Shown one piece after another: positions 3,356-61,768 of a stretch of DNA of 64,000 nucleotides. Location of the stretch: the NCBI RefSeq assembly GCF_055900595.2, contig NZ_CM148325.1. One strand, 5' to 3'. Both the position numbers and the translations under genes were made by a program. The notes beneath the pieces are model-generated. The model saw only the letters and a list, made by a program, of their open reading frames with translations. It was not told the origin of the DNA and did not search any database. Each line of letters starts with the position of its first letter. The stretch's first letter is position 1.

Positions 3356-3381
3356 AGTTGTTTTCCTGTATGAAAAACCAT

Positions 3382-3423
3382 TACTGTTATTGTGTACAGT
3401 ATAAACTGGTTTTATATACAGTA
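3382..3423 (-). promoter_or_regulatory. Two tandem LexA (SOS) boxes in the recN promoter
   Basis: tactgttattgtgtacagta (3382-3401) and actggttttatatacagta (3405-3423) fit CTGT-N8-ACAG, immediately upstream of recN start. Confidence 0.8.
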
Positions 3424-3440
3424 AAGAGGCTGGCGTAAAA

Positions 3441-5036
<1,596 letters not shown>

Positions 5037-5054
5037 TTTCTGCTTTCGTAATAA

Positions 5055-5085
5055 ATCACGGCCCAGCATGCGAATGCCGGGCCGT
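5055..5085. terminator. Bidirectional hairpin between convergent grpE and yfjD
   Basis: acggcccagcatgcgaatgccgggccgtttt: GC stem with flanking T-run. Confidence 0.6.
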
Positions 5086-5090
5086 TTTCG

Positions 5091-6353: not shown

Positions 6354-6397
6354 CGTGGTAGTAGATATGTGTTCCAGGGGAAACTCCTTTTCTGGGG

Positions 6398-7189
6398 TTA
6401 GCTGATTAACTGCTGGACAATTCGGCTACCGAAGTAGGCCAGTGTCAGAATGACCGCTCCCGCAACGTTAAACCAGACGACGCGGCGTCCACGCCATCCT
6501 TCATGATAATGTCCCCACAGCAGCACAATATAGACAAACCACGCCACGATAGAGAGCACGGCCTTGTCGATATTTTCCATGCTAAATAAGTTGTGCATGT
6601 AGAAGAGACCAGTGCAAAGAGTGAGCGTTAACAGCACCACGCCAATCTGCGTGATGTGGAACATTTTACGCTCGATACTCATCAACGGCGGCATTTCTTG
6701 GTTAAACGCCAGCTTCTTGTTCTTCAGTTGGTAATCAATCCACGCCAGTTGTAATGCATACAGAGCGGCGATAATCAGCGTGGCATAGGAAAAGAGCGAT
6801 AAGCCAATGTGAACCAGCATCCCAGGCGTTGCTTCCAGATGGGTGATGTATTCATTGGGCATAAAGGTGGCCAGCGCCAGGTTGATAAGCGCAAAGGCAT
6901 AGACAATGGGTAGCAGTAACCAGCCACGATTGCGGGAAGCCACGATGGTCATTACCGTACAGATCATCAAACTGACCAGCGAACCAACGTTCAGTAAGCT
7001 GAGGTTTTGTCCGCTATCACCGTCGGGCAAGATACGGGCTTCCAGAGCGATTGCGTGGCAGACCAGCGCGATGACCGCAGAAATAATAGCCATGCGCCGC
7101 CAGCCGCCGTTTTTTTGCAGCAGACCGGGAACAATCAGCGCAAGACTGACGGAGTAGGCGACAAGCGCGAGCAGAGCAAAAACGGGCAT
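6398..7189 (-). CDS. ypjD: Inner membrane protein YpjD (cytochrome c assembly protein-like family)
   Basis: Polytopic membrane ORF; start taken at MPVFALLALV (263 aa); ORF track extends to 7264. Confidence 0.8.
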   Translation of the reverse strand: MPVFALLALVAYSVSLALIVPGLLQKNGGWRRMAIISAVIALVCHAIALEARILPDGDSGQNLSLLNVGSLVSLMICTVMTIVASRNRGWLLLPIVYAFALINLALATFMPNEYITHLEATPGMLVHIGLSLFSYATLIIAALYALQLAWIDYQLKNKKLAFNQEMPPLMSIERKMFHITQIGVVLLTLTLCTGLFYMHNLFSMENIDKAVLSIVAWFVYIVLLWGHYHEGWRGRRVVWFNVAGAVILTLAYFGSRIVQQLIS

Positions 7190-7355
7190 AGTAATGTCGA
7201 CAGTTTGAGCAATAAGAAAGAGAAGCAGTATAGCGTCAGGTGAACGCTGCTCCAACCGTTGCATAACAACAAAGACGCCTTCATGTTATACTGCGGCAAA
7301 ATACTGATGATGTGTCGCGATTGCGGCCAACCGTTTCCACCCCAGGCGAGAGACA

Positions 7356-8717
7356 ATGTTTGATAATTTAACCGATCGTTTGTCGCGCACGCTGCGCAAT
7401 ATCAGTGGCCGTGGACGCCTCACTGAAGACAACGTAAAAGATACGCTGCGCGAAGTGCGCATGGCGCTGCTGGAGGCGGACGTCGCCCTGCCGGTAGTGC
7501 GTGAGTTTATCAATCGCGTAAAAGAGAAAGCGGTTGGTCATGAAGTTAATAAGAGCCTGACGCCGGGGCAGGAGTTCGTCAAAATCGTCCGTAACGAACT
7601 GGTTGCGGCGATGGGCGAAGAGAACCAGACCCTGAATCTGGCTGCGCAACCGCCAGCGGTGGTACTGATGGCGGGCCTGCAAGGTGCCGGTAAAACAACC
7701 AGCGTGGGCAAGCTCGGTAAGTTCCTGCGTGAGAAGCACAAGAAAAAAGTGCTGGTGGTTTCTGCCGACGTTTATCGTCCGGCGGCAATCAAACAGCTGG
7801 AGACGCTGGCAGAGCAGGTGGGCGTTGATTTCTTCCCTTCTGATGTTGGTCAGAAGCCGGTTGATATCGTTAACGCGGCGCTGAAAGAAGCCAAACTGAA
7901 ATTCTACGACGTGCTGCTGGTGGATACCGCCGGTCGTCTGCACGTTGACGAAGCGATGATGGACGAGATCAAACAGGTCCATGCATCGATTAATCCGGTT
8001 GAAACCCTGTTTGTGGTTGATGCCATGACTGGTCAGGATGCGGCCAATACGGCAAAAGCATTCAATGAAGCGTTACCGCTGACCGGTGTGGTACTGACTA
8101 AAGTCGACGGCGATGCTCGTGGCGGTGCGGCGCTCTCGATTCGTCACATCACTGGCAAACCGATCAAATTCCTCGGTGTTGGCGAGAAAACCGAGGCGCT
8201 GGAGCCGTTCCATCCGGACCGCATCGCTTCCCGTATTCTCGGCATGGGCGACGTACTGTCGCTGATCGAAGATATCGAAAGCAAAGTTGACCGCGCGCAG
8301 GCAGAGAAATTAGCCAGCAAGCTGAAAAAAGGTGACGGCTTCGATCTCAACGATTTCCTTGAGCAACTGCGCCAGATGAAAAATATGGGCGGCATGGCTA
8401 GCCTGATGGGCAAACTGCCGGGCATGGGGCAGATCCCGGATAACGTCAAGTCGCAGATGGACGATAAAGTGCTGGTGCGTATGGAAGCCATCATCAACTC
8501 GATGACGATGAAAGAGCGCGCTAAGCCAGAAATCATCAAAGGTTCGCGTAAACGCCGTATCGCTGCCGGTTGCGGTATGCAGGTGCAGGACGTTAACCGT
8601 CTTCTGAAACAGTTCGACGACATGCAGCGCATGATGAAGAAAATGAAGAAGGGCGGGATGGCGAAGATGATGAGAAGTATGAAGGGGATGATGCCGCCGG
8701 GATTTCCTGGTCGCTAA
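7356..8717 (+). CDS. ffh: Signal recognition particle protein Ffh
   Basis: 453 aa, GTPase motifs (GLQGAGKTT, DTAGR, TKVDG) and Met-rich C-terminal M domain. Confidence 0.96.
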   Translation: MFDNLTDRLSRTLRNISGRGRLTEDNVKDTLREVRMALLEADVALPVVREFINRVKEKAVGHEVNKSLTPGQEFVKIVRNELVAAMGEENQTLNLAAQPPAVVLMAGLQGAGKTTSVGKLGKFLREKHKKKVLVVSADVYRPAAIKQLETLAEQVGVDFFPSDVGQKPVDIVNAALKEAKLKFYDVLLVDTAGRLHVDEAMMDEIKQVHASINPVETLFVVDAMTGQDAANTAKAFNEALPLTGVVLTKVDGDARGGAALSIRHITGKPIKFLGVGEKTEALEPFHPDRIASRILGMGDVLSLIEDIESKVDRAQAEKLASKLKKGDGFDLNDFLEQLRQMKNMGGMASLMGKLPGMGQIPDNVKSQMDDKVLVRMEAIINSMTMKERAKPEIIKGSRKRRIAAGCGMQVQDVNRLLKQFDDMQRMMKKMKKGGMAKMMRSMKGMMPPGFPGR

Positions 8718-8775
8718 ATGACCTTATGCGACAGAGTTATTAACTGCTGATTGCATTTTCTCCAGAAATCAGTAA

Positions 8776-9102
<327 letters not shown>

Positions 9103-9120
9103 TCTGTCACGGTGGTCATG

Positions 9121-9669
9121 ATGAGCAAACAACTCACCGCGCAAGCACCTGTTGATCCCATCGTTTTGGGAAAAATGGGTTCGTCTTACGGTATTCGTGG
9201 GTGGCTCAGAGTGTTTTCTTCCACCGAAGACGCCGAAAGCATTTTTGACTATCAGCCCTGGTTTATCCAGAAGGCGGGTCAGTGGCAGCAAGTCCAGCTG
9301 GAAAGCTGGAAGCACCACAATCAGGACATGATCATCAAGCTGAAAGGCGTTGACGATCGTGATGCGGCGAACCTGCTGACGAATTGTGAAATTGTCGTGG
9401 ATTCATCGCAGTTGCCTCAGCTTGAAGAGGGTGACTACTACTGGAAAGACCTGATGGGCTGCCAGGTAGTAACCACTGAAGGCTACGATCTCGGTAAAGT
9501 CGTCGATATGATGGAAACCGGATCTAATGACGTTCTCGTCATTAAGGCAAACCTGAAAGATGCGTTTGGTATCAAGGAACGTCTCGTACCGTTCCTCGAT
9601 GGGCAGGTTATCAAGAAAGTCGATCTCACTACTCGTTCAATCGAAGTAGATTGGGATCCTGGTTTTTAA
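9121..9669 (+). CDS. rimM: Ribosome maturation factor RimM
   Basis: [28 protein letters not shown]... 182 aa. Confidence 0.94.
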
Positions 9670-9699
9670 ACCACCGGATAAACGGTAAAAGACGGCGCT

Positions 9700-10467
9700 A
9701 TGTGGATTGGCATAATTAGCCTGTTTCCTGAAATGTTCCGCGCAATTACCGATTACGGGGTAACTGGCCGGGCAGTTAAAAATGGCCTGCTGAGCATCCA
9801 GAGCTGGAGTCCTCGTGACTTCACGCATGACCGGCACCGTACCGTGGACGATCGTCCTTACGGCGGCGGACCGGGGATGTTAATGATGGTGCAACCTTTA
9901 CGGGACGCCATTCATGCAGCAAAAGCCGCGGCGGGTGAAGGCGCAAAGGTGATTTATCTGTCACCGCAGGGGCGCAAGCTTGATCAAGCAGGCGTCAGCG
10001 AACTGGCAACGAATCAAAAATTGATTCTGGTGTGCGGTCGCTACGAAGGTATAGATGAGCGCGTGATCCAAACCGAAATTGACGAAGAATGGTCAATCGG
10101 CGATTACGTTCTCAGTGGTGGTGAGTTACCAGCAATGACGCTGATTGACTCCGTTTCCCGGTTTATTCCGGGAGTACTGGGACATGAAGCCTCGGCAACG
10201 GAAGATTCCTTTGCTGAAGGATTGCTGGATTGCCCGCACTATACGCGGCCTGAGGTGTTAGAAGGGATGGAAGTTCCGCCAGTGTTACTGTCGGGCAACC
10301 ATGCCGAGATACGTCGCTGGCGTTTGAAACAGTCGCTGGGCCGTACCTGGCTTAGAAGACCTGAACTTCTGGAAAACCTGGCTCTGACTGAAGAGCAAGC
10401 AAGGTTGCTGGCGGAGTTCAAAACGGAACACGCACAACAGCAACATAAACATGATGGGATGGCGTAA
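9700..10467 (+). CDS. trmD: tRNA (guanine37-N1)-methyltransferase TrmD
   Basis: [13 protein letters not shown]... 255 aa. Confidence 0.96.
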
Positions 10468-10505
10468 GCCCCCGAGATATCAGTTTACCCAGGATAAGAG
10501 ATTAA

Positions 10506-10856
<351 letters not shown>

Positions 10857-10884
10857 GATTTCGCTTAAGCGACATCCTGTTAAG

Positions 10885-10916
10885 AAGGGCTGGCCAATTG
10901 GCTGGCCCTTTTTTTA
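10885..10916 (+). terminator. Rho-independent terminator of the rpsP-rimM-trmD-rplS operon
   Basis: gggctggccaattggctggccc hairpin followed by ttttttt. Confidence 0.75.
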
Positions 10917-10932
10917 TCTGTTTGCTCGTGTT

Positions 10933-11415
10933 TTAAGGGGTAGTAATCACTACTGCGACGCGGCGGTTCTCGGCGCGGCCCTGGGCGGTCTTGTTACTGG
11001 CTATGGGATATTTTTTTCCTAAACCCTGTGTGGTGAGGTTGCTGCGCGAAATTTGTCCACCTATAGCCCATGCATCGGCCACAACATTCGCCCGTTTCAA
11101 TGATAAGGCTTCGTTGTAACTGTCTTCACCATAGTTGTCGGTGTGTCCATCCATACGGGCATGCGTTAGCCCTGTCGAGGCCAATTTGGCTGCCATGGTT
11201 TGGATCTGTTGCTGGCTTTCCGGGAGCAATTTGTAGTCATTTTTTGCGAACAGAATGGCATCTGATAATCCCAGCGACCAGTCGCCGGCGGATTCAGTAA
11301 ATCCATAAGATTGCATAGCGGCAACTTGCTCAGGAGTAAACTTTCCCTGAGGGGACTGGCAGCCAGTCAGTACTAGCGAGGTGAAAATCAGGGGTGCTAC
11401 CAGGTGCTTTATCAT
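10933..11415 (-). CDS. yfiB: OmpA-family outer membrane lipoprotein YfiB (activator of DgcN)
   Basis: 160 aa, lipobox LTGC, OmpA-like C-terminal domain (NRRVAVVI). Confidence 0.92.
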   Translation of the reverse strand: MIKHLVAPLIFTSLVLTGCQSPQGKFTPEQVAAMQSYGFTESAGDWSLGLSDAILFAKNDYKLLPESQQQIQTMAAKLASTGLTHARMDGHTDNYGEDSYNEALSLKRANVVADAWAIGGQISRSNLTTQGLGKKYPIASNKTAQGRAENRRVAVVITTP

Positions 11416-11430
11416 ATCGATATATCCTTG

Positions 11431-12657
11431 TTATCTCACCAGCTTTTCGGCACGCTGGTGTTTGGCCTGATACATATTGTGATCGGCCAGCTCTTGTAAT
11501 TTTTCCGCAGAGGCATGCTCAATGGTCATCGCGTAACCAATGCTTAATGTCATGGTGGTCTGATGACCATTATGAAGATCAAACGGGCGATTAAAGATTT
11601 GTGTCAGTGCTGAGCATATCCGCTGCACTTCAGATTCCGACTGTACACCATAGAGCACCATCGCGAATTCATCGCCGCCTATGCGGTATGCTTTATGTTG
11701 CAGCCCGCCAAATTCTGCTAACCGTTTTGCTACCTCAATCAAGACCCGATCGCCCGTCGCATGACCCCAGGTATCGTTGATATATTTAAAATTATCGCCA
11801 TCAAGAAACAGTAACGCCGACGTTTTTCTGGCGTCGGAACTGCTCATCAACGTGTTGATGCCGCTACGAAACGCAGCCCGGTTCGCCAGCCCGGTTAATG
11901 GGTCATGTAGCGCGGTACGTAGCAGCTGCGCATTTTTAGCCTGTAAGCGAAGCTGCCACTCTTCCATTTCATCCAGCAGACTGTTGAAGTCGAGAGCGAA
12001 GCGGTGAAACTCAGCGATACGTTCTTCCGAAACTCGTCGGGAAAAATTGCGGTTGGAACGCACATCATGTACGACATCGGTGATATTTTTCAGCGCTTCC
12101 ACCAGGCCATTGTGCAAATGGCGGGTGAGGGTAATTGCGATGCCTGATGCCAGCAGAATACAACCGGTCAGGACAGCGAGCGAAAACCAGATAAAATGGC
12201 TGATTGAACTGTCGCGAGCGGTTAAGCGTACTTCGCCAATGGTTTCACCATTGTGACGAATCGGCTGAGTGATGGGGGCAGGGAAGAGCCAGTGGCTTAT
12301 GAAATTGCTGAAAGTATCGCCTGGATCCTTACGGGTGTAATGCCAGGATGCCAGAATATTTTGCTGCTTATCACGCACTTCTGCAGTTGAAAATTGCCCT
12401 TGCTTCCCCAGCGCTGCCAGTGTTTGAGTTGCTGCAGGGCCATCGGCAAAAACGACCGCTGCTTCCAGACTGTAAGTCATTGTTGCTGCTGTCAGTGCCA
12501 GGTTTTTTTGCGCGTACTGTTTCAGGGTCAGCACCGAGGTCACGGAAAGCAGCAACCAGATCAGCATCATAGTGATAAATATGCTGGTCATACTGATGTT
12601 GCGTAATGCTCTTTTAAACGTGGGGCGCTTATTAAGAGAATTATCGTTATCCATCAT
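11431..12657 (-). CDS. dgcN: Diguanylate cyclase DgcN (YfiN), membrane-bound, HAMP + GGDEF
   Basis: 408 aa with RIGGDEF active-site motif. Confidence 0.93.
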
Positions 12658-13165
12658 TTTTCTTCCGTGCGAGCATTAAGACATCTGGGTTCACCTTTAC
12701 ACCGCTACGCGATAAGGCATCCAGGTTTACGGCAAATCTGACGTCATTATTGTGGATGATCAGACAAAAGGCGCTGCCAATAATGCACTCGGCATTTTGT
12801 TCGGCAATTAATAATAACGCCTTTGACGGATATTGTTCGGTTAATTCCATCTGGAATGTTGGTGACTCGTTGCCAAAATAAAAACCATTGCAGCCTGATA
12901 TCATCGCCTCTTGTTGAGAGTGAATGATGACAGGCAGATAAGGCAAAGATGTCGCGCCATTCTCTTGTAGGGCGGTACTAAAACGTGAAGATGAAAAGAT
13001 ACATAACTTTGGTAGGCCTGATAGCGCAGGCCAGCGAGTGTAACTGACAATACCGGAAACCATCGTACGCACGTTTTTCGCAACGTCTGAAGGTTCCTGA
13101 GCGAGTATTGGTGCTCCCGTCAGGAGGAGAATCAGCAGTAAGAACAGACGATGAGAAAAACGCAT
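12647..13165 (-). CDS. yfiR: Periplasmic repressor of DgcN, YfiR
   Basis: 172 aa with signal peptide; overlaps dgcN start by 11 nt (operon yfiR-dgcN-yfiB). Confidence 0.9.
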
Positions 13166-13315
13166 TCAGGGATCCTCACCATCTTCGCTTGCAATGCATC
13201 GATAATTTTTCAGAATGCTCATTAAAATATCATTTTTTTATGCAGTCGTCATCAGAGTGGGAAATAAAAAATAATAAGTAAAATCTCATGTTTAATTTAT
13301 TGTTGGGGGGGTTAA

Positions 13316-13681
13316 TTAATTTAATCGTATTGTGCTGGCATTCTCATCAGCCCCTTTTTGCCATACTTCATGCAGTTGGCTGGCATTTTCAACATTGTTG
13401 CAGCTGGCAGGAAAGCTTTTACCGGAAAGTCCTCGGGCATAAGTAAAATCGGTCTGGCAAGTTTTCTTTTGTCCTTCGGCATATCCTTTAAGGTATAGAC
13501 CGCGATCCGCCTGTGAATCGCTAAATGCATCGTCATCTTTTATGGCGTTGCCCGATATCGCATCTTCCATACCAACATCATACCAGTCGGTGCTGGTCAA
13601 GGTTGGCGCGTGAGTATAAGGATCAATCTGACATCCGCTAACCAGTAAAGCCAACAAGGGGGCGATAAACTTTTTCATCAT
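13316..13681 (-). CDS. yfiL: Lipoprotein YfiL
   Basis: MMKKFIAPLLALLVSGC lipobox; start taken at the MM pair (121 aa); ORF track extends to 13720. Confidence 0.8.
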   Translation of the reverse strand: MMKKFIAPLLALLVSGCQIDPYTHAPTLTSTDWYDVGMEDAISGNAIKDDDAFSDSQADRGLYLKGYAEGQKKTCQTDFTYARGLSGKSFPASCNNVENASQLHEVWQKGADENASTIRLN

Positions 13682-13726
13682 TTCTTTCTCCTTTTTCAAA
13701 GCATAGCGGATTGTTTTCAAAGGAGG

Positions 13727-13796
13727 TGTAAATTTATTTATACATAAACAAGGGTTAAAAGCGCGAATAAATTGCCTGTGTAAAGAAAAATGTACG
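13727..13796 (+). promoter_or_regulatory. TyrR boxes in the aroF promoter
   Basis: TGTAAATTTATTTATACA (13727-13744) and TGTAAAGAAAAATGTACG (13779-13796) fit TGTAAA-N6-TTTACA. Confidence 0.7.
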
Positions 13797-13890
13797 ATAT
13801 ATGGATTGAAAACTTTACTTTATGTGTTATCGTTACGTCATCCTCGCTGAGGATCAACTATCGCAAACGAGCATAAACAGGATCGCCATC

Positions 13891-14961
13891 ATGCAAAAAG
13901 ACGCGCTGAATAACGTACATATTACCGACGAACAAGTTTTAATGACTCCGGAACAACTGAAGGCCGCTTTTCCATTAAGCCTGCAACAGGAAGCCCAGAT
14001 TGCTGACTCGCGTAAAACCATTTCAGATATTATCGCCGGGCGGGATCCTCGTCTGTTGGTAGTATGTGGTCCTTGTTCCATTCATGATCCGGAAACTGCT
14101 CTGGAATATGCTCGTCGATTTAAAGCCCTTGCCGCAGAGGTCAGCGATAGCCTCTATCTGGTAATGCGCGTCTATTTTGAAAAACCCCGTACCACTGTCG
14201 GCTGGAAAGGGTTAATTAACGATCCCCATATGGATGGCTCTTTTGATGTAGAAGCCGGGCTGCAGATCGCGCGTAAATTGCTGCTTGAGCTGGTGAATAT
14301 GGGACTGCCACTGGCGACGGAAGCGTTAGATCCAAATAGCCCGCAATACCTGGGCGATCTGTTTAGCTGGTCAGCAATTGGTGCTCGTACAACGGAATCG
14401 CAAACACACCGTGAAATGGCCTCCGGGCTTTCCATGCCGGTTGGTTTTAAAAACGGCACCGACGGCAGCCTTGCAACGGCTATTAACGCTATGCGCGCCG
14501 CCGCCCAGCCGCACCGTTTTGTTGGCATTAACCAGGCAGGGCAGGTTGCGTTGCTACAAACTCAGGGGAATCCGGACGGGCATGTGATCCTGCGCGGTGG
14601 TAAAGCGCCAAACTATAGCCCTGCGGATGTTGCGCAATGTGAAAAAGAGATGGAACAGGCGGGACTGCGCCCGTCTCTGATGGTAGATTGCAGCCACGGT
14701 AATTCCAATAAAGATTATCGCCGTCAGCCTGCGGTGGCAGAATCCGTGGTTGCTCAAATCAAAGATGGCAATCGCTCAATTATTGGTCTGATGATCGAAA
14801 GTAATATCCACGAGGGCAATCAGTCTTCCGAGCAACCGCGCAGTGAAATGAAATACGGTGTATCCGTAACCGATGCCTGCATTAGTTGGGAAATGACCGA
14901 TGCCTTGCTGCGTGAAATTCATCAGGATCTGAACGGGCAGCTGACGGCTCGCGTGGCTTAA
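13891..14961 (+). CDS. aroF: DAHP synthase, Tyr-sensitive (AroF)
   Basis: [30 protein letters not shown]... 356 aa. Confidence 0.95.
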
Positions 14962-14971
14962 GAGGTTTATT

Positions 14972-16093
14972 ATGGTTGCTGAATTGACCGCATTACGCGA
15001 TCAAATTGATGAAGTCGATAAAGCGCTACTGAATTTATTAGCGAAGCGTCTGGAACTGGTTGCTGAAGTTGGCGAGGTGAAAAGCCGCTTTGGACTGCCT
15101 ATTTATGTTCCGGAGCGCGAGGCATCTATGCTGGCCTCGCGGCGTGCAGAGGCGGAAGCTCTGGGTGTACCGCCAGATCTGATTGAGGATGTTTTGCGTC
15201 GGGTGATGCGTGAATCTTACTCCAGTGAAAACGACAAAGGATTTAAAACGCTTTGTCCGTCTCTGCGTCCGGTGGTTATCGTCGGTGGTGGCGGTCAGAT
15301 GGGACGTCTGTTCGAGAAGATGCTGACGCTCTCGGGTTATCAGGTGCGGATTCTGGAGCAACATGACTGGGATCGAGCGGCTGATATTGTTGCCGATGCC
15401 GGAATGGTGATTGTTAGTGTGCCCATTCACGTTACTGAACAAGTTATTGGCAAATTACCGCCTTTACCGAAAGATTGTATTCTGGTCGATCTGGCATCGG
15501 TGAAAAATGGACCATTACAGGCCATGCTGGCGGCGCATGATGGTCCGGTGCTGGGGTTACACCCGATGTTCGGCCCGGACAGCGGTAGCCTGGCAAAGCA
15601 AGTTGTGGTCTGGTGTGATGGACGTAAGCCGGAAGCATACCAATGGTTTCTGGAGCAAATTCAGGTCTGGGGCGCTCGGCTGCATCGTATTAGCGCTGTC
15701 GAGCACGATCAGAATATGGCGTTTATTCAGGCACTGCGCCACTTTGCTACTTTTGCTTATGGGCTGCACCTGGCAGAAGAAAATGTTCAGCTTGAGCAAC
15801 TTCTGGCGCTTTCTTCGCCGATTTACCGCCTTGAGCTGGCGATGGTTGGGCGACTGTTTGCCCAGGATCCGCAACTGTATGCCGACATTATTATGTCGTC
15901 AGAGCGTAATCTGGCGTTAATCAAACGTTACTATAAGCGTTTCGGCGAGGCGATTGAGTTGCTGGAGCAGGGCGATAAGCAGGCGTTTATTGACAGTTTC
16001 CGCAAGGTGGAGCACTGGTTCGGCGATTACGCACAGCGTTTTCAGAGTGAAAGCCGCGTGTTATTGCGTCAGGCGAATGACAGTCGCCAGTAA
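14972..16093 (+). CDS. tyrA: Bifunctional chorismate mutase / prephenate dehydrogenase (T-protein)
   Basis: 373 aa TyrA sequence, 10 nt after aroF stop. Confidence 0.95.
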
Positions 16094-16100
16094 TAATCCA

Positions 16101-16133
16101 GTGCCGGGTGGCGTGTTTCACCCGGCACGATTT
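16101..16133. terminator. Bidirectional terminator between convergent tyrA and pheA
   Basis: gtgccgggtg ... cacccggcac hairpin with flanking T-runs. Confidence 0.75.
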
Positions 16134-16135
16134 CA

Positions 16136-17296
16136 TTATGCCGGATCGACTGGTACCACATTCTCGCTTGGGTAACAGCCCAGGACTTTCATCGAGCGAG
16201 TGATTTCACCTAGCTCTTTCAACGCCTGTTGCATTTCCGCTGATTCCAGATTGGCCTGAATATCCAGATAAAACATCTCTTCCCACGGGTTTCCGTGAAT
16301 CGGGCGTGATTCCAGACGGGTCATAATCAGACTGTGATTGCGCAGTACCAGCAACGCTTCAACCAGTGCACCAGCATGTTGTCCGGTCGCCATTAACAAC
16401 GTCGTTTTCGCCGGAACCTGGTCAGAAACGTTAATGGCTTTACGTGCCAACACCACAAATCGGGTGAAGTTTTGTCGCTGATTCGCTTCAATACGCTCCA
16501 GTACCTGCAAACCGTACAAAGTGCCGCCAGCTTCGCTTCCCAACGCAGCAACATGCGGTGATTTTGCCTGTGCAACCTTTTCCATTGCCGCAGACGTACT
16601 TTCGGTATATTCAATCTTCCAGTGCGGATAACGATTAAGGAATTTGCTGCATTGCTGGAATGGCTGCGGATGGCTGTAGACCGTATTGATGGCGGATAAA
16701 TCAGTAGTGCCGGAGACCAACAAACAATGATCGATAGTTAACGTCATCTCGCCAACAATCGACAAACTGGTATGTTGCAGCAGATCGTAAACGTCGTTTA
16801 TGGCACCGGAGCTGGTATTTTCAATCGGTACGACGGCATAGTCGGCCTGGCCGGTTTCCACCTGATTAAAAATATCGGCAAATTTGGCGCAGCCACTTTC
16901 AATGAATTGCTCAAAGTGACGCGCAGCGTACTGACGAGCGGCAAGATGTGAATAGGAGCCTTTGGGGCCGAGAAAAGCGATGCGTGCTGAGTGCGGATTA
17001 ATTTGATTGAGATGTTGCTGGAGCAGTGCCTGCTGAGTTAATACGGAATCTTCAATGATGAGCTGGAACAGGCGAGTAATGTAATGGGCGTCCAGATGGT
17101 GCGCTTTACCGAGCGTAATTAATCTTTCCAGCAAATCGCGTTCGCGATCAATATCACGTACCGGGCGATGAGAGAGCAGTTTGGCTTTTCCCACCTCGAC
17201 GGCCAGTTCGCGCCGCTCTGCCAGTAATGCTAATAATTTTTCATCCAGCGCGCTGATTTTCTCTCGCAGCGCCAGTAACGGGTTTTCCGATGTCAT
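16136..17296 (-). CDS. pheA: Bifunctional chorismate mutase / prephenate dehydratase (P-protein)
   Basis: [22 protein letters not shown]... 386 aa. Confidence 0.95.
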
Positions 17297-17318
17297 AGTG
17301 TTGCCTTTTTGTTATCAA

Positions 17319-17349
17319 TAAAAAAGGCCCCCCGGTTTGGGAGGCCTTA
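17319..17349 (-). terminator. pheA attenuator terminator
   Basis: Minus-strand RNA AAGGCCTCCCAAACCGGGGGGCCTTTTTT between pheL and pheA. Confidence 0.8.
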
Positions 17350-17394
17350 TTGTTCGTCTTCGCATTCTGTTTCACACGACGAAACGCCTCCCAT

Positions 17395-17442
17395 TCAGGG
17401 GAAGGTAAAAAAGAATGCGAAGAAAAACGGTGTGTGTTTCAT
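17395..17442 (-). CDS. pheL: pheA leader peptide PheL (15 aa, Phe-rich)
   Basis: Minus-strand ATG at 17442 encodes [15 protein letters not shown]; not in ORF track because it is under 60 aa. Confidence 0.85.
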   Translation of the reverse strand: [15 protein letters not shown]

Positions 17443-17497
17443 GTTTGTTTCCTTAAGTGACTTCAGTACAGTACCCGTACTGTTTTCACGCTGTCAA

Positions 17498-17522
17498 CAA
17501 AAAACGCGCCCGAAGGCGCGTT
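17498..17522 (-). terminator. Rho-independent terminator downstream of raiA
   Basis: cgcgcccgaaggcgcg hairpin with U-run on the minus-strand transcript. Confidence 0.7.
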
Positions 17523-17545
17523 GGCGATACACTCAATATAAAGGA

Positions 17546-17941
<396 letters not shown>

Positions 17942-18120
17942 TCAAAATGTGTGATGGAAATCTCATAATTTTGTCACTTTTTGTCAACGAATCTTTTTTG
18001 TGAGAAATCGCAGGAAGAGGTGTTTTTTTACTTGAGGAATATCTCAAAGCGAGCCATATTTGATGAGATCGATAGTGACTAAATCGCTTCAGTTTCACAA
18101 CTAACAGAATAAAAAAACGG

Positions 18121-18133
18121 CAGCTCAAGGCTG
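18121..18133. repeat. Left copy of the direct repeat flanking the IS4 element (putative target-site duplication)
   Basis: cagctcaaggctg here versus cagctcaagggctg at 19655-19668 (one G difference). Confidence 0.6.
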
Positions 18134-18146
18134 TAATGCCAGTCAG

Positions 18147-18858
18147 TTAAGCAACTGACTGGCTCTTTTTCGGGGCTGTGGGGTATTTCCAGGGCCTCTC
18201 CTTTACCACTCTCGGGAAGGCCCTTTCCCTTCTTGTCGGTAATTTCACTGGTTGTCCCATACTTGCAAGATCGCGCATCAGCTCCGGTATACGTCCCGGT
18301 GAAGCGCATGGCGTCCGTCATCGACGTCAGCAGATGGCTGGTCAGTTCCATCTGGCAGACCATTTTGACCTGCGGGTAGAGCGCCGGGTTCTCGGCATGT
18401 GTCTGGCGGGGGAAGGCTGCATCGTTCTCTGGTGTATCCGGTGTGCGCCAGAACACACCATCGATGGCCAGCAGGGTCAGGCCGCACCAGTGCGGATGCA
18501 GCGTGGCGTTATGCCAGAGCTGCGCTGTTTTCGTGAACACGCGTCGGACAGCCTCACTTCCCAGGCGCTGGCGGGCCTGAATAACGGCACTGGGGGCAAC
18601 GAAGGGGCGATTGCCTGGCAGCATGATGTCCAGGCGATTCACAATCTGGTGAAGAGGTTCTTTACGCTCAAGCGCCATGCCAACAATACACCAGACCATC
18701 ATTTCGAGGGGAAGACGGCGCTTGCGTAGCGTTACAGTACCTGATTCGGCAAGGCAACGAGAGATGAGTTCGGGGTCGAGGTAATCCCCCAGAAAAGTCA
18801 GTGGGTTACGCAGAGAATCGTAACGGGATACCAAATCAAGGGCCTGTCCAATGAGCAT
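18147..18858 (-). pseudogene. IS4 transposase (InsG-like) pseudogene: N-terminal ~175 aa intact, then internal deletions and frameshift
   Basis: MLIGQALDLVSRYDSLRNPL...HLLT then jumps to SMTDAMRF and loses frame; 259-aa ORF versus 442 aa for intact IS4 transposase (length recalled from memory). Confidence 0.75.
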
Positions 18859-18894
18859 AAATAAATATCCTCCGGCATAGCCGGAGGTTTTTCA

Positions 18895-19607
18895 AATGCG
18901 CCTGTAAGGCTCTGTTACCAGCCGCGCCCTAACAGGCGCATACGATCTGACATTTGCATTCAACTTCGTTACTTACGGCCCGTAAACGGGCTGCCCGGAT
19001 ATGGAATCGATAACTGCTCCCCCATTTTATCCTCTTCAAGCTGGTGCTTTATGTAGTCCTGTATCTTCGCCGTGTTCTTACCCACCGTATCGACATAGTA
19101 CCCTCGGCACCAGAACTCCCTGTTTCTGTATTTGAATTTCAAATCCCCAAACTGCTCGTAAAGCATCAGACTGCTTTTCCCTTTCAGATATCCCATAAAG
19201 CCGGATACGCTCATTTTGGGTGGGATTTCCACAAGCATATGGATATGATCTGCGCAGCACTCTGCTTCCAGAATCCGTACGCTTTTCCACTCACACAGCT
19301 TTCTCAAAATACTGCCTATCGCCCTACGCTTCTCTCCGTAAAACGCCAGTCTTCGGTATTTCGGCGCAAAAACTATGTGATATTTACAGTTCCAGCGGGT
19401 GTGCGCTAAGCTCTTTTCGTCCCCCATTGGGACCCCCTTTTGATTTCTTGTTTGACACTTGCAGTTGCCAGACCGCAAGGTGTTTTAACAAATCAAAAGG
19501 GGTTTTAATAACTGGCTCAAAGCTGAAAGCTTTCCGGAACCCCCAGCCTAGCTGGGGGTTTTCTGTGCACAAAAAAATCCGGAAACGAGTGAGCGTTTCC
19601 GGATTCT
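18895..19607 (-). mobile_element. IS200-like element (IS200/IS605 family), approx. 0.71 kb, boundaries +/- ~20 bp
   Basis: Contains Y1/HUH transposase tnpA, a terminator-like perfect palindrome near the left end (19577-19603), a 5'-UTR palindrome (19540-19558) and a 10-bp inverted repeat after the stop (18896-18905 / 18932-18941); extent inferred from expected IS4 leader length. Confidence 0.7.
18969..19427 (-). CDS. tnpA: IS200 transposase TnpA (Y1 HUH single-strand transposase)
   Basis: MGDEKSLAHTRWNCKYHIVFAPKYRR...HIHMLVEIPPK... 152 aa; the HxH (HIHML) motif is directly visible; ORF-track start at 19478 is an upstream extension. Confidence 0.9.
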   Translation of the reverse strand: MGDEKSLAHTRWNCKYHIVFAPKYRRLAFYGEKRRAIGSILRKLCEWKSVRILEAECCADHIHMLVEIPPKMSVSGFMGYLKGKSSLMLYEQFGDLKFKYRNREFWCRGYYVDTVGKNTAKIQDYIKHQLEEDKMGEQLSIPYPGSPFTGRK

Positions 19608-25118: not shown

Positions 25119-25208
25119 GCGCCACCACTGACACGGAACAACGGCAAACACGCCGCCGGGTCAGCGAGATTCTCCTGAGAATCTCGACAGAGAAAAGCAA
25201 AAAAATGC

Positions 25209-25236
25209 TTGACTCTGAAGCGGGAAAGCGTATTAT
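25209..25236 (+). promoter_or_regulatory. rRNA operon promoter P2
   Basis: ttgact -N16- tattat followed by GC-rich discriminator. Confidence 0.8.
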
Positions 25237-25273
25237 GCACACCCCGCGCCGCTGAGAAAAAGCGAAGCGGCAC

Positions 25274-25286
25274 TGCTCTTTAACAA
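25274..25286 (+). promoter_or_regulatory. rrn leader boxA antitermination element
   Basis: tgctctttaacaa matches boxA consensus TGCTCTTTAACAA. Confidence 0.8.
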
Positions 25287-25417
25287 TTTATCAGACAATC
25301 TGTGTGGGCACTCGAAGATACGGATTCTTAACGTCGCAAGACGAAAAATGAATACCAAGTCTCAAGAGTGAACACGTAATTCATTACGAAGTTTAATTCT
25401 TTGAGCATCAAACTTTT

Positions 25418-26959
<1,542 letters not shown>

Positions 26960-27044
26960 CCTTAAAGAACTGTTCTTTGCAGTGCTCACACAGATTGTCT
27001 GATAGAAAGTGAAAAGCAAGGCGTCTTGCGAAGCAGACTGATAC

Positions 27045-27120
27045 GTCCCCTTCGTCTAGAGGCCCAGGACACCGCCCTTTCACGGCGGTAACAGGGGTTC
27101 GAATCCCCTAGGGGACGCCA
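27045..27120 (+). tRNA. gltW: tRNA-Glu (UUC) in the 16S-23S spacer
   Basis: GTCCCCTTCGTCTAGAGGCCCAGGACACCGCCCTTTCACGGCGGTAACAGGGGTTCGAATCCCCTAGGGGACGCCA. Confidence 0.97.
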
Positions 27121-27314
27121 CTTGCTGGTTTGTGAGTGAAAGTCGCCGACCTTAATATCGTTAAAGATGACTTACGAGTCATGTTTAAGATATTTGCTCT
27201 TTAAAAATCTGGATCAAGCTGAAAATTGAAACACTGAACAATGAAAGTTGTTCGTGAGTCTCTCAAATTTTCGCAACACGATGATGAATCGAAAGAAACA
27301 TCTTCGGGTTGTGA

Positions 27315-30219
<2,905 letters not shown>

Positions 30220-30312
30220 ACAACGCCGAAGATGTTTTGGCGGATTGAGAGAAGATTTTCAGCCTGATACAGATTAAATCAGAACGCAGAAGCGGTCTGA
30301 TGAAACAGAATT

Positions 30313-30432
30313 TGCCTGGCGGCCTTAGCGCGGTGGTCCCACCTGACCCCATGCCGAACTCAGAAGTGAAACGCCGTAGCGCCGATGGTAGTGTGGGGTC
30401 TCCCCATGCGAGAGTAGGGAACTGCCAGGCAT
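30313..30432 (+). rRNA. rrfG: 5S ribosomal RNA
   Basis: TGCCTGGCGGC...GGAACTGCCAGGCAT, 120 nt. Confidence 0.97.
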
Positions 30433-30446
30433 CAAATTAAGCAGAA

Positions 30447-30474
30447 GGCCCAGTCGGAAGACTGGGCCTTTTTG
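30447..30474 (+). terminator. rRNA operon terminator
   Basis: ggcccagtc ggaa gactgggcc hairpin followed by ttttt. Confidence 0.85.
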
Positions 30475-30492
30475 CATGGTGCAGAAAACCAT

Positions 30493-30528
30493 GCCGGATG
30501 CGACGCTGGTGCGTCTTATCCAGCCTAC
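30493..30528. repeat. REP (repetitive extragenic palindromic) element
   Basis: gccggatgcgacgctggtgcgtcttatccagcctac matches REP consensus GCCGGATGCGGCG...CTTATCCGGCCTAC. Confidence 0.75.
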
Positions 30529-30762
30529 GCTCCCACATAAGCTAGATTCAACAGCGAATACGGCTTCCCCAAATTGCCCACTTAAATACTTCCTCCTTAC
30601 CAGAAATCTATCCTTAAGCTCCTTAATAACCATTTTCCTGCTAACTAAATTCATGGTTAAGGTTGCATAATGATACGCAACAAATGTATAACATTTTCTT
30701 TACCAAAAAATAAACAACAGCGACCGACAAAAGCATCGGATTACGGCAGGAGACATAATGGC

Positions 30763-32061
30763 ATGGCTGAAAGTACTGTAACGGCAGACAGCAAACTGAC
30801 AAGTAGTGATACTCGTCGCCGCATTTGGGCAATTGTGGGGGCCTCTTCAGGTAATTTGGTCGAGTGGTTCGATTTCTATGTCTACTCGTTCTGTTCACTC
30901 TACTTCGCCCACATCTTCTTCCCTTCCGGAAACACGACGACTCAACTACTGCAAACAGCAGGTGTTTTTGCTGCGGGATTTCTGATGCGCCCAATAGGCG
31001 GTTGGCTATTTGGCCGCATAGCCGATAAACATGGTCGCAAAAAATCGATGCTATTATCGGTGTGTATGATGTGTTTCGGCTCACTGGTTATCGCCTGTTT
31101 GCCAGGCTACGAAACAATCGGTACCTGGGCTCCGGCATTATTGCTTCTCGCTCGTTTATTCCAGGGATTATCCGTTGGCGGAGAATATGGCACCAGCGCC
31201 ACCTATATGAGTGAAGTTGCCGTTGAAGGGCGCAAAGGTTTTTACGCATCATTTCAGTATGTGACGTTGATCGGCGGGCAACTGCTAGCTCTACTGGTTG
31301 TCGTGGTTTTACAACACACCATGGAAGACGCTGCACTCAGAGAGTGGGGATGGCGTATTCCTTTCGCGTTAGGAGCTGTGTTAGCTGTTGTGGCGTTGTG
31401 GTTACGTCGTCAGTTAGATGAAACTTCACAACAAGAAACACGCGCTTTAAAAGAAGCTGGATCTCTGAAAGGATTATGGCGCAATCGCCGTGCATTCATC
31501 ATGGTTCTCGGTTTTACCGCTGCGGGCTCCCTTTGTTTCTATACCTTCACCACTTATATGCAGAAGTATCTGGTAAATACTGCGGGAATGCATGCCAACG
31601 TGGCGAGTGGCATTATGACTGCCGCATTGTTTGTATTCATGCTTATTCAACCACTTATTGGCGCGCTGTCGGATAAGATTGGTCGTCGTACCTCAATGTT
31701 ATGTTTCGGTTCTTTGGCAACCATTTTTACCGTTCCTATTCTCTCAGCATTGCAGAACGTATCTTCGCCTTATGCCGCTTTTGGTCTAGTGATGTGCGCC
31801 CTGCTGATAGTGAGTTTTTATACTTCAATCAGTGGAATACTGAAGGCTGAAATGTTCCCGGCCCAGGTTCGCGCATTAGGTGTTGGTCTGTCGTATGCCG
31901 TCGCTAATGCGATATTTGGTGGCTCAGCAGAGTACGTAGCGTTGTCGCTGAAATCAATAGGAATGGAAACAGCCTTCTTCTGGTATGTGACCTTGATGGC
32001 CGTGGTGGCGTTTCTGGTTTCTTTGATGCTACATCGCAAAGGGAAGGGGATGCGCCTTTAA
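30763..32061 (+). CDS. kgtP: Alpha-ketoglutarate permease (MFS transporter)
   Basis: [28 protein letters not shown]... 432 aa; ORF-track 30670 start is an upstream extension. Confidence 0.93.
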
Positions 32062-55630: not shown

Positions 55631-56010
55631 TGGCAATATTAGGTTTAGGCACGGATATCGTGGAGATCGCTCGCATAGAAGCGGTGATCGCCCGATCCGG
55701 TGAGCGCCTGGCTCGCCGCGTATTAAGCGATAACGAATGGGAAATCTGGAAAACGCACCACCAGCCAGTGCGTTTTCTGGCGAAGCGCTTTGCCGTAAAA
55801 GAAGCCGCAGCAAAAGCGTTTGGCACCGGGATCCGCAATGGTCTGGCGTTTAATCAGTTTGAAGTATTTAACGATGAGCTTGGTAAGCCACGGCTGCGAC
55901 TGTGGGGCGAGGCATTAAAACTGGCGGAAAAGCTCGGCGTTGTAAATATGCATGTAACGCTGGCAGATGAACGCCACTATGCTTGCGCCACGGTAATTAT
56001 CGAAAGTTAA
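55630..56010 (+). CDS. acpS: Holo-[acyl-carrier-protein] synthase
   Basis: [32 protein letters not shown]... 126 aa. Confidence 0.96.
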
Positions 56011-56029
56011 AATAATACCGTTCTCTTTA

Positions 56030-56072
56030 AAAAGTAAAACCCCCGAACTGGTAAGGAACGGGGGTTTTACTT
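56030..56072. terminator. Terminator hairpin downstream of acpS
   Basis: aaaacccccgaactggtaaggaacgggggtttt flanked by A/T runs. Confidence 0.7.
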
Positions 56073-56429
56073 TACAACTTTAATTTTGTGCAGCACACGA
56101 TTCCAACAAAAATGATTATGGATCAATTTAGTTATCCTGTACAAGCAACTTGCAATCTTTAGCATAAAAACTCGAGCCTTTACGAAGAAATCGATATTGA
56201 TGAAAAGATTAACGTGACCGCTTTTTGATAAGTACATTAGAATCGGCGTCGTTATTGGATATTTTGCTGTGTTCTACGCCATGCCACTGAATTCCCCCAT
56301 TGAAACGAGTGGTGTCGTCAAAGCTCTGGTGTGGAGTGCGGCACTCGATTCCAATAACTCGCACGTTCAGTTTTGGGGAGATGTAAGGGCTAATCTGAAC
56401 GGCTGCATTCCTTGTTTAAGGAAAAACGA

Positions 56430-56510
56430 ATGACTGATTGCCGATACCTGATTAAACGGGTCATTAAAGTCGTCATTGCTGTTTTACAGCTGATCCTTCT
56501 GTTCTTGTAA
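56430..56510 (+). CDS. shoB: Type I toxin ShoB (26-aa hydrophobic membrane peptide)
   Basis: atg...taa encodes MTDCRYLIKRVIKVVIAVLQLILLFL*, matching ShoB; absent from ORF track because it is under 60 aa. Confidence 0.8.
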   Translation: MTDCRYLIKRVIKVVIAVLQLILLFL

Positions 56511-56703
56511 CACCAGGAAACGTACTTAAGGCGCGTCAGGTTAACCAGCCAGGCGCGCCTTTAATAATTATAAATAAATGTCTGGGCAGATATTATATAA
56601 ATTCATTTGGTGAATAATTATGCTAATGTCATCAATTAAATAAATATAATGGCGTTAAGGCTTTCCTGTAAAATATTTAATACTCTACTTCCAGAGCAAA
56701 ATA

Positions 56704-57000
<297 letters not shown>

Positions 57001-57019: not shown

Positions 57020-57114
57020 TCAAACCAGTTTTTTCACCAACGCTTCACTATGACGAATACGTTCTGGTGCCAGCTCCAGATCCTGCTGAATCAGCGCAAT
57101 GAACAGTAAATCCG
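57020..57114 (-). pseudogene. yfhH: Displaced 3' end of yfhH (last ~28 codons) separated from the gene body by IS1
   Basis: Joining minus-strand sequence across the IS1 plus one TSD copy restores an in-frame tail ...LFIALIQQDLELAPERIRHSEALVKKLV*. Confidence 0.7.
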
Positions 57115-57129
57115 GGTAATGACTCCAAC

Positions 57130-57633
57130 TTATTGATAGTGTTTTATGTTCAGATAATGCCCGATGACTTTGTCATGCAGCTCCACCGATTTTGAGAACG
57201 ACAGCGACTTCCGTCCCAGCCGTGCCAGGTGCTGCCTCAGATTCAGGTTATGCCGCTCAATTCGCTGCGTATATCGCTTGCTGATTACGTGCAGCTTTCC
57301 CTTCAGGCGGGATTCATACAGCGGCCAGCCATCCGTCATCCATATCACCACGTCAAAGGGTGACAGCAGGCTCATAAGACGCCCCAGCGTCGCCATAGTG
57401 CGTTCACCGAATACGTGCGCAACAACCGTCTTCCGGAGCCTGTCATACGCGTAAAACAGCCAGCGCTGGCGCGATTTAGCCCCGACATAGCCCCACTGTT
57501 CGTCCATTTCCGCGCAGACGATGACGTCACTGCCCGGCTGTATGCGCGAGGTTACCGACTGCGGCCTGAGTTTTTTAAGTGACGTAAAATCGTGTTGAGG
57601 CCAACGCCCATAATGCGGGCAGTTGCCCGGCAT
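57130..57633 (-). CDS. insB: IS1 InsB reading frame (expressed as InsAB' transposase by -1 frameshift)
   Basis: 167-aa ORF overlapping insA 3' end in the -1 frame. Confidence 0.9.
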
Positions 57634-57827
57634 CCAACGCCATTCATGGCCATATCAATGATTTTCTGGTGCGTACCGGGTTGAGAAGCGGTGTAAGTGA
57701 ACTGCAGTTGCCATGTTTTACGGCAGTGAGAGCAGAGATAGCGCTGATGTCCGGCGGTGCTTTTGCCGTTACGCACCACCCCGTCAGTAGCTGAACAGGA
57801 GGGACAGCTGATAGAAACAGAAGCCAC
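57552..57827 (-). CDS. insA: IS1 protein InsA
   Basis: [43 protein letters not shown]... 91 aa. Confidence 0.93.
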
Positions 57828-57877
57828 TGGAGCACCTCAAAAACACCATCATACACTAAATCAGTAAGTTGGCAGCA

Positions 57878-58645
57878 TCACCGTAAATCCGTTAACATTC
57901 CCTGAGCGTGACAAGCAGAGATTGCAGCACTGTTTGTCGCTTGTTCTTCGGCAATGGTATACAGGCAATGAGAAGCACGCTGTTGCAGGGCATTGGGAGT
58001 AAAGCCGGTAATCGCCAGCACTTTTCCGCCCACTCGCAGCATCTCATCTGCCGCCAGGTTTAACTCGCGTCGTACACCGGTGTAGGAAATGGCTAATAAC
58101 AGATCGTCAGGGGACGACGCCTGTACTGTAGCGAGTAGCGCATGCATATCGCGCACTGCGGCAGCATTGAAGCCAATCTTCATCAGCTTCCAGGCAAAGT
58201 TTTGCGCCACCAGACCCGAAGCGCCAATACCGGTCAGAATTATCCGCCGTGCAGAGCGCAACATTGTTACGCATTCATGCAGTTTCTCTTCACTATTAAC
58301 ATTTAGCGTTGCGTACATAGCGGCAGTATTTTCTTTAATCAGTTTTTCGCCGACCAGCCGTAACGGATCATCACCGCGGATTTGGTTATGAATGGGCACG
58401 GAGGGAGATTCCGGCTGGCTTGCCAGCGCTTCACTCAACGCCAACTTAAGTGCCGGAAAACCTTTATAGCCGAGTTTTTGCGCGAACTTCACGACGCTGG
58501 ACTGACTGACTCCGGCTTCGTTGGCCAGTTGCTGAGAGCTTAAATGGCGCGCCGTATCAGGTTGTAGCAGCAGATAGTCCGCCAGTTTTTTATCACTCTG
58601 GGCAAGCCCCTGGTAACGCTGACGGATACGAAGTAAGCCGTTCAT
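57878..58645 (-). pseudogene. yfhH: RpiR-family (HTH + SIS domain) regulator YfhH, C-terminally truncated by IS1
   Basis: MNGLLRIRQRYQGLAQSDKKLADYLL... reads ...GMLTDL then enters IS1 and stops after one codon (R*). Confidence 0.8.
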
Positions 58646-58853
58646 ATCTTTCCTCGCGATGAAATAGTGGCGACAACAGGCAATATGAGACAAACGCGGG
58701 TGAATTTTATATTCCATTGCCGCTAATTGCCATGAATTAAAAATTCCAGTTAGCCATGATGCGGTCGATTGTTGCCGGAAAAGTGATGATCTATCTGTTA
58801 GGCTATGTAGTAGCGAAAATTAATCAGGATGTTTCAGTCCAGAGGAGTATGGT

Positions 58854-59489
58854 TTGGCAACTCACGAGCGTCGTGTGGTGTTTTTTGACTTAGATGGAAC
58901 ATTGCATCAGCAGGATATGTTCGGCAGTTTTATGCGTTATTTACTGCGTCGCCAACCGCTGAATGCATTACTTGTCCTGCCGTTGTTGCCGGTCATTGCC
59001 ATCGCGTTATTGATAAAAGGTCGTGCAGCACGATGGCCGATGAGTCTGCTTCTTTGGGGATGCACTTTTGGTCACAGTGAAGCGCGTTTACAGGCGTTGC
59101 AGGCCGATTTTGTGCACTGGTTTCGCGACAATGTTACCGCTTTTCCGCTTGTCCAGGAGCGTTTGACTACCTACCTGTTAAGTTCCGATGCGGATATTTG
59201 GTTGATCACAGGCTCTCCGCAGCCGCTGGTTGAAGCGGTTTATTATGATACGCCCTGGTTGCCGCGGGTTAATCTTATTGCCAGTCAGATCCAGCGGGGT
59301 TATGGCGGTTGGATATTGACGATGCGTTGTCTGGGACATGAAAAGGTCGCACAACTGGAGCGCAAAATTGGCACGCCGCTGCGGCTGTACAGTGGCTATA
59401 GCGACAGTAATCAGGACAACCCGCTGCTTTATTTCTGCCAGCATCGCTGGCGGGTAACCCCGCGTGGTGAACTCCAGCAACTGGAATAG
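58854..59489 (+). CDS. pgpC: Phosphatidylglycerophosphatase C (HAD-like), PgpC/YfhB
   Basis: MATHERRVVFFDLDGTLHQQD... HAD motif I, 211 aa. Confidence 0.92.
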   Translation: MATHERRVVFFDLDGTLHQQDMFGSFMRYLLRRQPLNALLVLPLLPVIAIALLIKGRAARWPMSLLLWGCTFGHSEARLQALQADFVHWFRDNVTAFPLVQERLTTYLLSSDADIWLITGSPQPLVEAVYYDTPWLPRVNLIASQIQRGYGGWILTMRCLGHEKVAQLERKIGTPLRLYSGYSDSNQDNPLLYFCQHRWRVTPRGELQQLE

Positions 59490-59501
59490 AGTAAAGCATA
59501 G

Positions 59502-61603
<2,102 letters not shown>

Positions 61604-61768
61604 TTAGTTAATTCTCTGTGTCGTGCGCATCCCAGCTTGAAAAAACGTAATAATAGTGAAAGGTTTACTCATAAATGAGCGGCATTTTGCGTAAACCAGC
61701 GCCAGTTGGCAACTTATTACAGCCATTGGCGGCACGCGTTGCTAATTCACAATGGTGATTTTATTTCC

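Follow-up and report, generated by a model that had tools for sequence, protein, structure and literature searches.

We have found that the gene yfhH, coding for a regulator of the RpiR family, is interrupted by an IS1 element in the window under study (the whole 64-kb stretch of DNA that was analyzed), and the comparisons presented here make it very probable that the interruption was produced by a single, recent and simple transposition. An intact IS1 of the IS1A type entered the gene after codon 254 and left a duplication of its 9-bp target GTAAATCCG; this would have taken place not long ago, within this strain or the clone to which it directly belongs. By analogy with the regulator RccR, the protein would have lost helices that contribute to the subunit interface and close the effector pocket of the neighbouring subunit. 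The expected outcome would be a misfolded, non-oligomerising or effector-blind YfhH, i.e., a loss-of-function allele of a non-essential regulator.

The IS1 element and the interrupted frame

The element is located at positions 57115–57882 on the minus strand, with its insA and insB genes read in the same direction as yfhH, and is 768 bp long. Direct reading and a script check placed it between two copies of GTAAATCCG, the left one at 57106–57114 (in gene orientation, codons 252–254 of yfhH plus the first base of codon 255) and the right one at 57883–57891. These are the only two occurrences of the 9-mer in the 64-kb window, with exactly 768 bp in between, and the probability of finding the same 9-mer at both ends by chance is 4^-9, about 4e-6. 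IS1 is characterized by a length of 768 bp, imperfect inverted repeats, the genes insA and insB with an A6C motif, and an 8- or 9-bp target duplication (PMC12428005). All of these features, namely the length and near-identity, the inverted repeats, insA and insB with the A6C motif leading to the InsAB' product, and a target duplication of 8 or 9 bp, were found in the element described here.

The comparison with the IS1A copy of K-12 (NC_000913.3, 19796–20563) gave a gap-free alignment with 766 of 768 positions identical. The two elements have in common the 768 bp, the inverted repeats, insA, insB, the -1 shift at the A6C motif, the 232-aa InsAB' and the 9-bp target duplication, and differ by two bases, one of which alters residue 130 of InsAB' (R here, S in IS1A), the single amino acid difference between both products. 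The terminal inverted repeats are imperfect, 23 nt long and 78% complementary; the right one, GGTAATGACTCCAACTTATTGAT, is found at 57115–57137, and the left one, given here as its reverse complement GGTGATGCTGCCAACTTACTGAT, at 57860–57882, where it provides the TGA (57878–57880) that ends the yfhH frame. Both transposase genes are on the minus strand and overlap: insA (91 aa, GTG start) was identified at 57552–57827 as an open reading frame with a match to the NCBIfam IS1 transposase model NF033558, and the insB frame (167 aa) spans 57130–57633. The motif AAAAAAC is found at 57570–57576 (IS position 307), and a -1 frameshift there joins both into the 232-aa InsAB'. Both parts matched NF033558, the insB part with 145.6 bits (cut-off 100), while in the profile search insA matched the N-terminal part of this model and the IS1/IS1595 zinc-binding domain. 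A site resembling an insA promoter by its match to the consensus, CTGCCA-16-TATGAT, lies in the left end of the element (57875–57848, minus strand). Judged from their sequence, the coding regions and the ends of this copy are all intact. No second copy of IS1 was found elsewhere within the 64-kb window. In K-12, transposition of IS1 is increased by transcription coming from the flanking DNA (PMC12428005). As the element is co-oriented with yfhH, transcription from the yfhH promoter would run into it, and the K-12 precedent raises the possibility that transposition of this particular copy is increased.

The interrupted yfhH frame runs on the minus strand from 58645 to 57878, beginning with MNGLL and ending with GMLTDL-R-stop, and consists of 254 native codons followed by CGG and TGA, so that the product has 254 native residues plus one Arg (255 aa). 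The CGG codon takes its C from the last base of the duplicated target and its two Gs from bases 1–2 of the IS1 left end, and the TGA corresponds to bases 3–5 of the element. When 57020–57114 was joined to 57892–58645, a gene of 849 nt (282 codons plus stop) was restored, and the truncation thus removes 28 codons. The orphaned 3' remnant, codons 255–282 with the native TGA (57020–57106, minus strand), is still in frame and has no mismatches to the related genome E200086; it has not decayed. A longer start (MEYKIH..., 279 aa) was considered and rejected, the corresponding product being absent from the records and the conserved start being MNGLL, as in K-12.

The identity of the gene is clear from several comparisons. 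The restored protein scored 572 bits against the NCBIfam YfhH equivalog NF008590 (cut-off 355) and aligned over positions 1–282 of 282, while the truncated product scored 516 bits and covered only profile positions 1–254. Compared with YfhH of K-12 (b2561), which lies at the syntenic position among the same neighbours, the restored protein has the same 282 aa with 281 of them identical, the sole difference being A241 here against S, whereas the actual sequence has a single Arg in place of the final 28 residues. The gene order, mltF-tadA-pgpC / yfhH-yfhL / shoB-ohsC-acpS, with pgpC divergent and yfhL downstream, coincides with the order in K-12 and in the nearest relatives. A first-pass annotation of this DNA had proposed a complete 768-bp IS1 between perfect 9-bp repeats, interrupting yfhH at the cost of 28 codons, with a single Arg and a stop inside the IS1 end, and had set the outer limits at 57020 (native stop) and 58645 (start codon). 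The direct reading, the alignment to IS1A, the reading frames and the frameshift bear out its description of the element, the equivalog score and the syntenic b2561 its naming of the gene, and its numbers and coordinates are all right.

Age and distribution of the insertion

We have searched 5,426 complete genomes of E. coli using the whole interrupted gene as query, counting only IS1 copies in the same orientation, and the insertion was found in none of them (0/5,426), while 5,418 of them contain the 3' region of yfhH. There were 14 places with at least 80% of the query covered, all with record spans of 1,757–2,619 bp instead of the 1,626 of the query. That these hits represent the same insertion was rejected, as the spans and the four annotations that were fetched put IS1 downstream of an intact 849-bp yfhH. 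The intact gene has 849 bp also in K-12, SMS-3-5 and the nearest relatives. A natively short YfhH was discarded on the grounds of this common length and of the conserved tail found across the family, and the comparison with K-12 and other strains that the first-pass annotation had proposed thus showed that the native protein extends past the cut.

The eight complete genomes that best matched the window between 42000 and 64000 (99.9–100.0% identity, 97% of the query covered) correspond to seven human isolates, including E200086 (human stool, Mali), E400634, 100117 and E600003, and one dog isolate. In the four best genomes the record span was exactly 21,224 bp, that is, the query minus 777 bp. 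Once IS1 and one copy of the repeat were removed, the remaining 21,224 bp were colinear with E200086 with 3 mismatches, and the empty site of E200086 contains a single GTAAATCCG. A deletion or rearrangement (inversion) mediated by IS1 was rejected because, with the element excised, the flanks match E200086 in exact colinear order. This colinearity and the empty site point to a simple insertion, younger than the split from these relatives, and together with the absence of the insertion from the 5,426 complete genomes they lead us to read it as a recent, strain-specific and simple transposition. The recent origin had already been put forward from the perfect repeats and the intact element, and is now backed by E200086, the closest complete genome fetched, with its empty site and 3 base differences in the 21,224-bp flank. 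Within the collections searched, this particular allele is new.

The exact 255-aa truncated product is recorded on one other contig only, from a short-read assembly (SRR27886137). This contig is identical to the window from 57854 to 61645 and terminates 29 bp within the left end of IS1; short-read assemblies usually break at repeats in this way. It supports the right junction independently, and may stem from the same isolate. We have considered whether the IS1 could be an artefact, a repeat misplaced by the assembler, in view of the multiple copies that the element has in this lineage (4–15 matching places per chromosome in the relatives) and of the fact that the independent data show the right junction only and not the left one at 57114/57115. 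However, a perfect 9-bp duplication at the exact ends of IS1 is a signature of transposition that a misplacement would not yield, and the independent contig stops within the left end of IS1, at the very same junction, and encodes the same ...TDLR-stop, so that an assembly artefact is scarcely credible.

The surroundings of yfhH have received IS1 on other occasions. In the 14 of 5,426 complete genomes mentioned above, an IS1 in the same orientation is located within ~1 kb downstream of yfhH (around window positions 56000–57000). Among the four that were fetched (F404, CP61_Sichuan, 2452 and NMBU_W05E18), IS1 was found in the yfhL-shoB-ohsC-acpS spacer in two, overlapped the 3' end of yfhL in another, and the remaining one had no annotated yfhL; for the other ten, the position downstream of yfhH comes from the record span only. 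All 14 keep yfhH intact at 849 bp, and the spans imply at least five different IS1 positions. This looks like a hotspot for IS1 in the neighbouring AT-rich spacer, beside the present insertion and not at it.

All three differences between the window and E200086 along the 21,224 bp (window positions 57895, 58345 and 58374) fall inside the 849 bp of yfhH. One is synonymous, at codon 251, and the other two give K101 here against E and G91 here against D. At these sites the window agrees with K-12 and SMS-3-5, and the derived state is that of the relatives (WP_032303575.1); Z0117EC0005 has the same three substitutions, and the same protein WP_032303575.1, as E200086. A recombination patch of K-12 type as the source of this cluster of three sites was rejected, since the intervening lineage-specific sites are shared. 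In an unrelated assembly (Logan SRR33796108, L011:1501-3209) we detected a 1-bp deletion at codon 245/246 of yfhH, leading to a product of 250 aa that ends in ...ISACTLREC. The deletion is absent from the complete genomes of E. coli, and the exact 250-aa sequence occurs on one contig only, indicating a single independent case. A widespread frameshift lineage, as the protein cluster of this product (P0010, 250 aa, with "365 member sequences") could suggest, was rejected given that the exact sequence is on that one contig. This contig also has foreign DNA interrupting yfhL after ~16 codons, and past that point an ORF of 120 residues extends to the contig end; the ORF has no Pfam hit on record and resembles a site-specific invertase by eye.

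Farther from yfhH, the comparison of the window between 18859 and 42500 with E200086 revealed 37 differences, 35 of them in or beside the rRNA operon (~25169–30930) and only two outside. The concentration of differences fits an exchange between copies of the rRNA operon rather than point divergence. Across position ~18859 (bamD side) the window is colinear with the K-12-type order. In E200086 the match to window 1–19500 (100.0% identity) is found ~120 kb away and inverted, with an IS200/IS605 transposase gene at the breakpoint, what appears to be an inversion in E200086. The genomes E400634, E600003 and 100117 match window 1–19500 on the plus strand, at record positions consistent with colinearity.

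The truncated regulator

The restored protein has a HTH_6 domain (PF01418) at residues 1–77 and a SIS domain (PF01380) at residues 128–258, the latter matching the whole Pfam model. The first-pass annotation had located the lost segment after the SIS domain, a claim that did not hold, because the cut after residue 254 lies within it. The truncated product lacks the last four SIS profile positions (127 of 131 are kept) and both terminal helical segments. These segments were delimited with an AlphaFold2 model (mean pLDDT 93.7, and 93–98 in the 10-residue blocks from residue 241 on), built on an alignment of 99 near-full-length family members obtained from a search of representative proteins. In the model, the cut falls inside a helix that spans residues 239–262 and is followed by a terminal helix at 266–281. 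The protein would thus lose the last 8 residues of the former and the whole of the latter, keeping the HTH (1–77) and most of the SIS domain. Conservation among the 99 family members also singles out the place of the cut, which is at a D253-x-L-F motif, with D253 conserved in at least 90%, L255 in 81% and F256 in 63%. Past the cut column these 99 proteins carry at least 15 further residues (median 29); they were selected for near-full length and are therefore biased to long tails.

YfhH shares the two-domain plan of MurR (PDB 7en5/7en6/7en7) and RccR (8ju9/8k3b), both repressors of the RpiR family that sense phosphosugars. Its effector domain is 33% identical to that of MurR over residues 89–280, and the phmmer alignment to MurR continues through ...TDLLFvgLvQ... 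up to residue 280. When the model was superimposed on the effector domain of E. coli MurR as solved by crystallography, the TM-score was 0.97 and the rmsd 1.2 Å over 191 columns, and the MurR structures include counterparts of both C-terminal helices. YfhH scores 169 bits against the MurR equivalog NF012026, below its cut-off of 408, and is for this reason a paralogue of MurR and not MurR itself. In RccR the SIS domain was defined as residues 91–280, helix alpha14 is located in the dimer interface, and alpha15 (260–280), contributed by the other subunit, helps to enclose the phosphosugar and transmits its binding to the DNA-binding domain (PMC11014249). By the same token, helices 239–262 and 266–281 of YfhH are to be counted as part of the SIS domain, as they are in MurR and RccR, and from the position and order of the helices we infer that the cut removes the end of the alpha14 equivalent and all of the alpha15 equivalent.

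A cut inside the SIS domain makes a loss or alteration of function likelier than the earlier note implied. We consider that the function has probably been lost, by analogy with MurR and RccR, in that the effector domain would fold poorly or fail to oligomerise. On the other hand, the HTH and the region of the conserved phosphate-binding Ser/Thr are kept, so that some DNA binding could survive, and the apo-MurR construct 7en6, which ends ~5 residues past the equivalent of YfhH residue 262, is still folded, suggesting that the very last helix is dispensable for the fold; the cut in YfhH is 8 residues further in. If the truncated YfhH still bound DNA and no longer responded to its effector, it would act as a constitutive or dominant regulator and not as a null. 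The retention of HTH_6 (1–77) and of 127 of 131 SIS profile positions, the crystallisation of the MurR apo construct as a folded domain without the last helix, and the role of the RccR terminal helix as a mobile relay of ligand binding, the loss of which could uncouple sensing from binding (PMC11014249), all speak in its favor. However, the cut lies within the preceding long helix, at the conserved D-x-L-F motif, the helix that corresponds to it sits in the dimer interface of RccR (PMC11014249), and 99 of 99 full-length family members keep at least 15 residues past the cut (median 29, in a set selected by length and biased to long tails). An effector-blind regulator seems to us decidedly unlikely, and loss of function the better account.

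Downstream of yfhH, in the same orientation and 55 bp after its native stop, is yfhL (56704–56964, minus strand), which codes for a 4Fe-4S dicluster ferredoxin (NF033683 equivalog, 136 bits, cut-off 86). The main consequence of the insertion could then be polar, either by decreasing the transcription into yfhL or by creating at the IS1 ends new transcription into the neighbours. IS1 insertions are generally polar in both orientations. The co-orientation of both genes, with a gap of 55 bp in which no terminator-like site was found, is compatible with such an effect, and so is a hybrid promoter-like site on the plus strand (57869–57898), formed by TTGGCA from the left end of IS1, a spacer of 18 nt and TAACAT from yfhH, and directed towards pgpC. 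Against this, promoter activity has been reported 5' of yfhL in E. coli (PMC2984482), and the insertion leaves intact the 150 bp of native DNA that precede yfhL. The promoter scan provides consensus matches only, and the 8 found compare with 4.8 ± 2.2 expected; besides, several complete genomes have an IS1 in or beside yfhL itself, which suggests that disruption of yfhL is tolerated. A polar effect on yfhL could occur, as could effects on pgpC, but as the main consequence we find it unlikely. The hybrid site matches 9 of 12 consensus positions and points across the 5' part of yfhH, antisense to the gene, in the direction of pgpC (58854–59489). The gene for the OhsC antitoxin sRNA (Rfam RF02495, 101.7 bits) was found intact at 56031–56107 on the minus strand, in the acpS-yfhL spacer, as in K-12, where OhsC pairs with the shoB toxin gene.

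Significance for YfhH

YfhH has been described as the only uncharacterised regulator of the RpiR family in E. coli (PMC4797297), and is also named as an uncharacterised member of the family elsewhere (PMC9308461). A yfhH::Kan strain was employed as a genetic marker (PMC2909356), hence the gene is non-essential. Genomic SELEX listed binding of the RpoH and RpoE holoenzymes in the yfhB(pgpC)/yfhH spacer (PMC5493296). As for its function, the literature consulted offered only lists, expression lists included, and guesses. Homologues with ~40% identity to YfhH (four loci, L013–L016) adjoin genes for MurQ-like SIS etherases, and in three of them (L014–L016) there are also a BadF/BcrA-type kinase-like protein, a MurA-like enzyme and a peptide-binding protein. 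These are settings of cell-wall sugar recycling, and yfhH in E. coli is two genes away from the lytic transglycosylase gene mltF. Such neighbourhoods may hint at the kind of effector of YfhH, or the homologues may merely be MurR-like paralogues, and for the latter reason no conclusion about the function of YfhH was drawn from them.

That a resident IS, flanked by a perfect target duplication, truncates a non-essential gene is textbook biology and involves no new principle. Nothing new is learned from it about IS1 or about gene inactivation, and it has little import beyond the annotation of the strain, in which the IS1 junction is a clone-specific marker for typing the lineage. If the allele coded for a protein that binds DNA and is blind to its effector, it could represent an adaptive rewiring of a phosphosugar regulon, and the MurR-like fold together with mltF two genes away suggest that a link of the YfhH regulon to cell-wall turnover might hold. 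Three observations would fit a yfhH that changes repeatedly in E. coli associated with hosts and is not just a random casualty, with such a rewiring behind it: the IS1 cut described here, the three yfhH substitutions of E200086 and Z0117EC0005, two of which change amino acids (G91D and K101E), and the 1-bp deletion of the unrelated assembly, where the protein ends at almost the same point. We nevertheless consider this reading very unlikely. What the strain carries is probably a natural null allele of yfhH, the gene for the one RpiR-family regulator of E. coli still uncharacterised (PMC4797297); together with the near-identical relatives that have the empty site, this allele could be a ready-made comparison for the targets and the regulon of YfhH.
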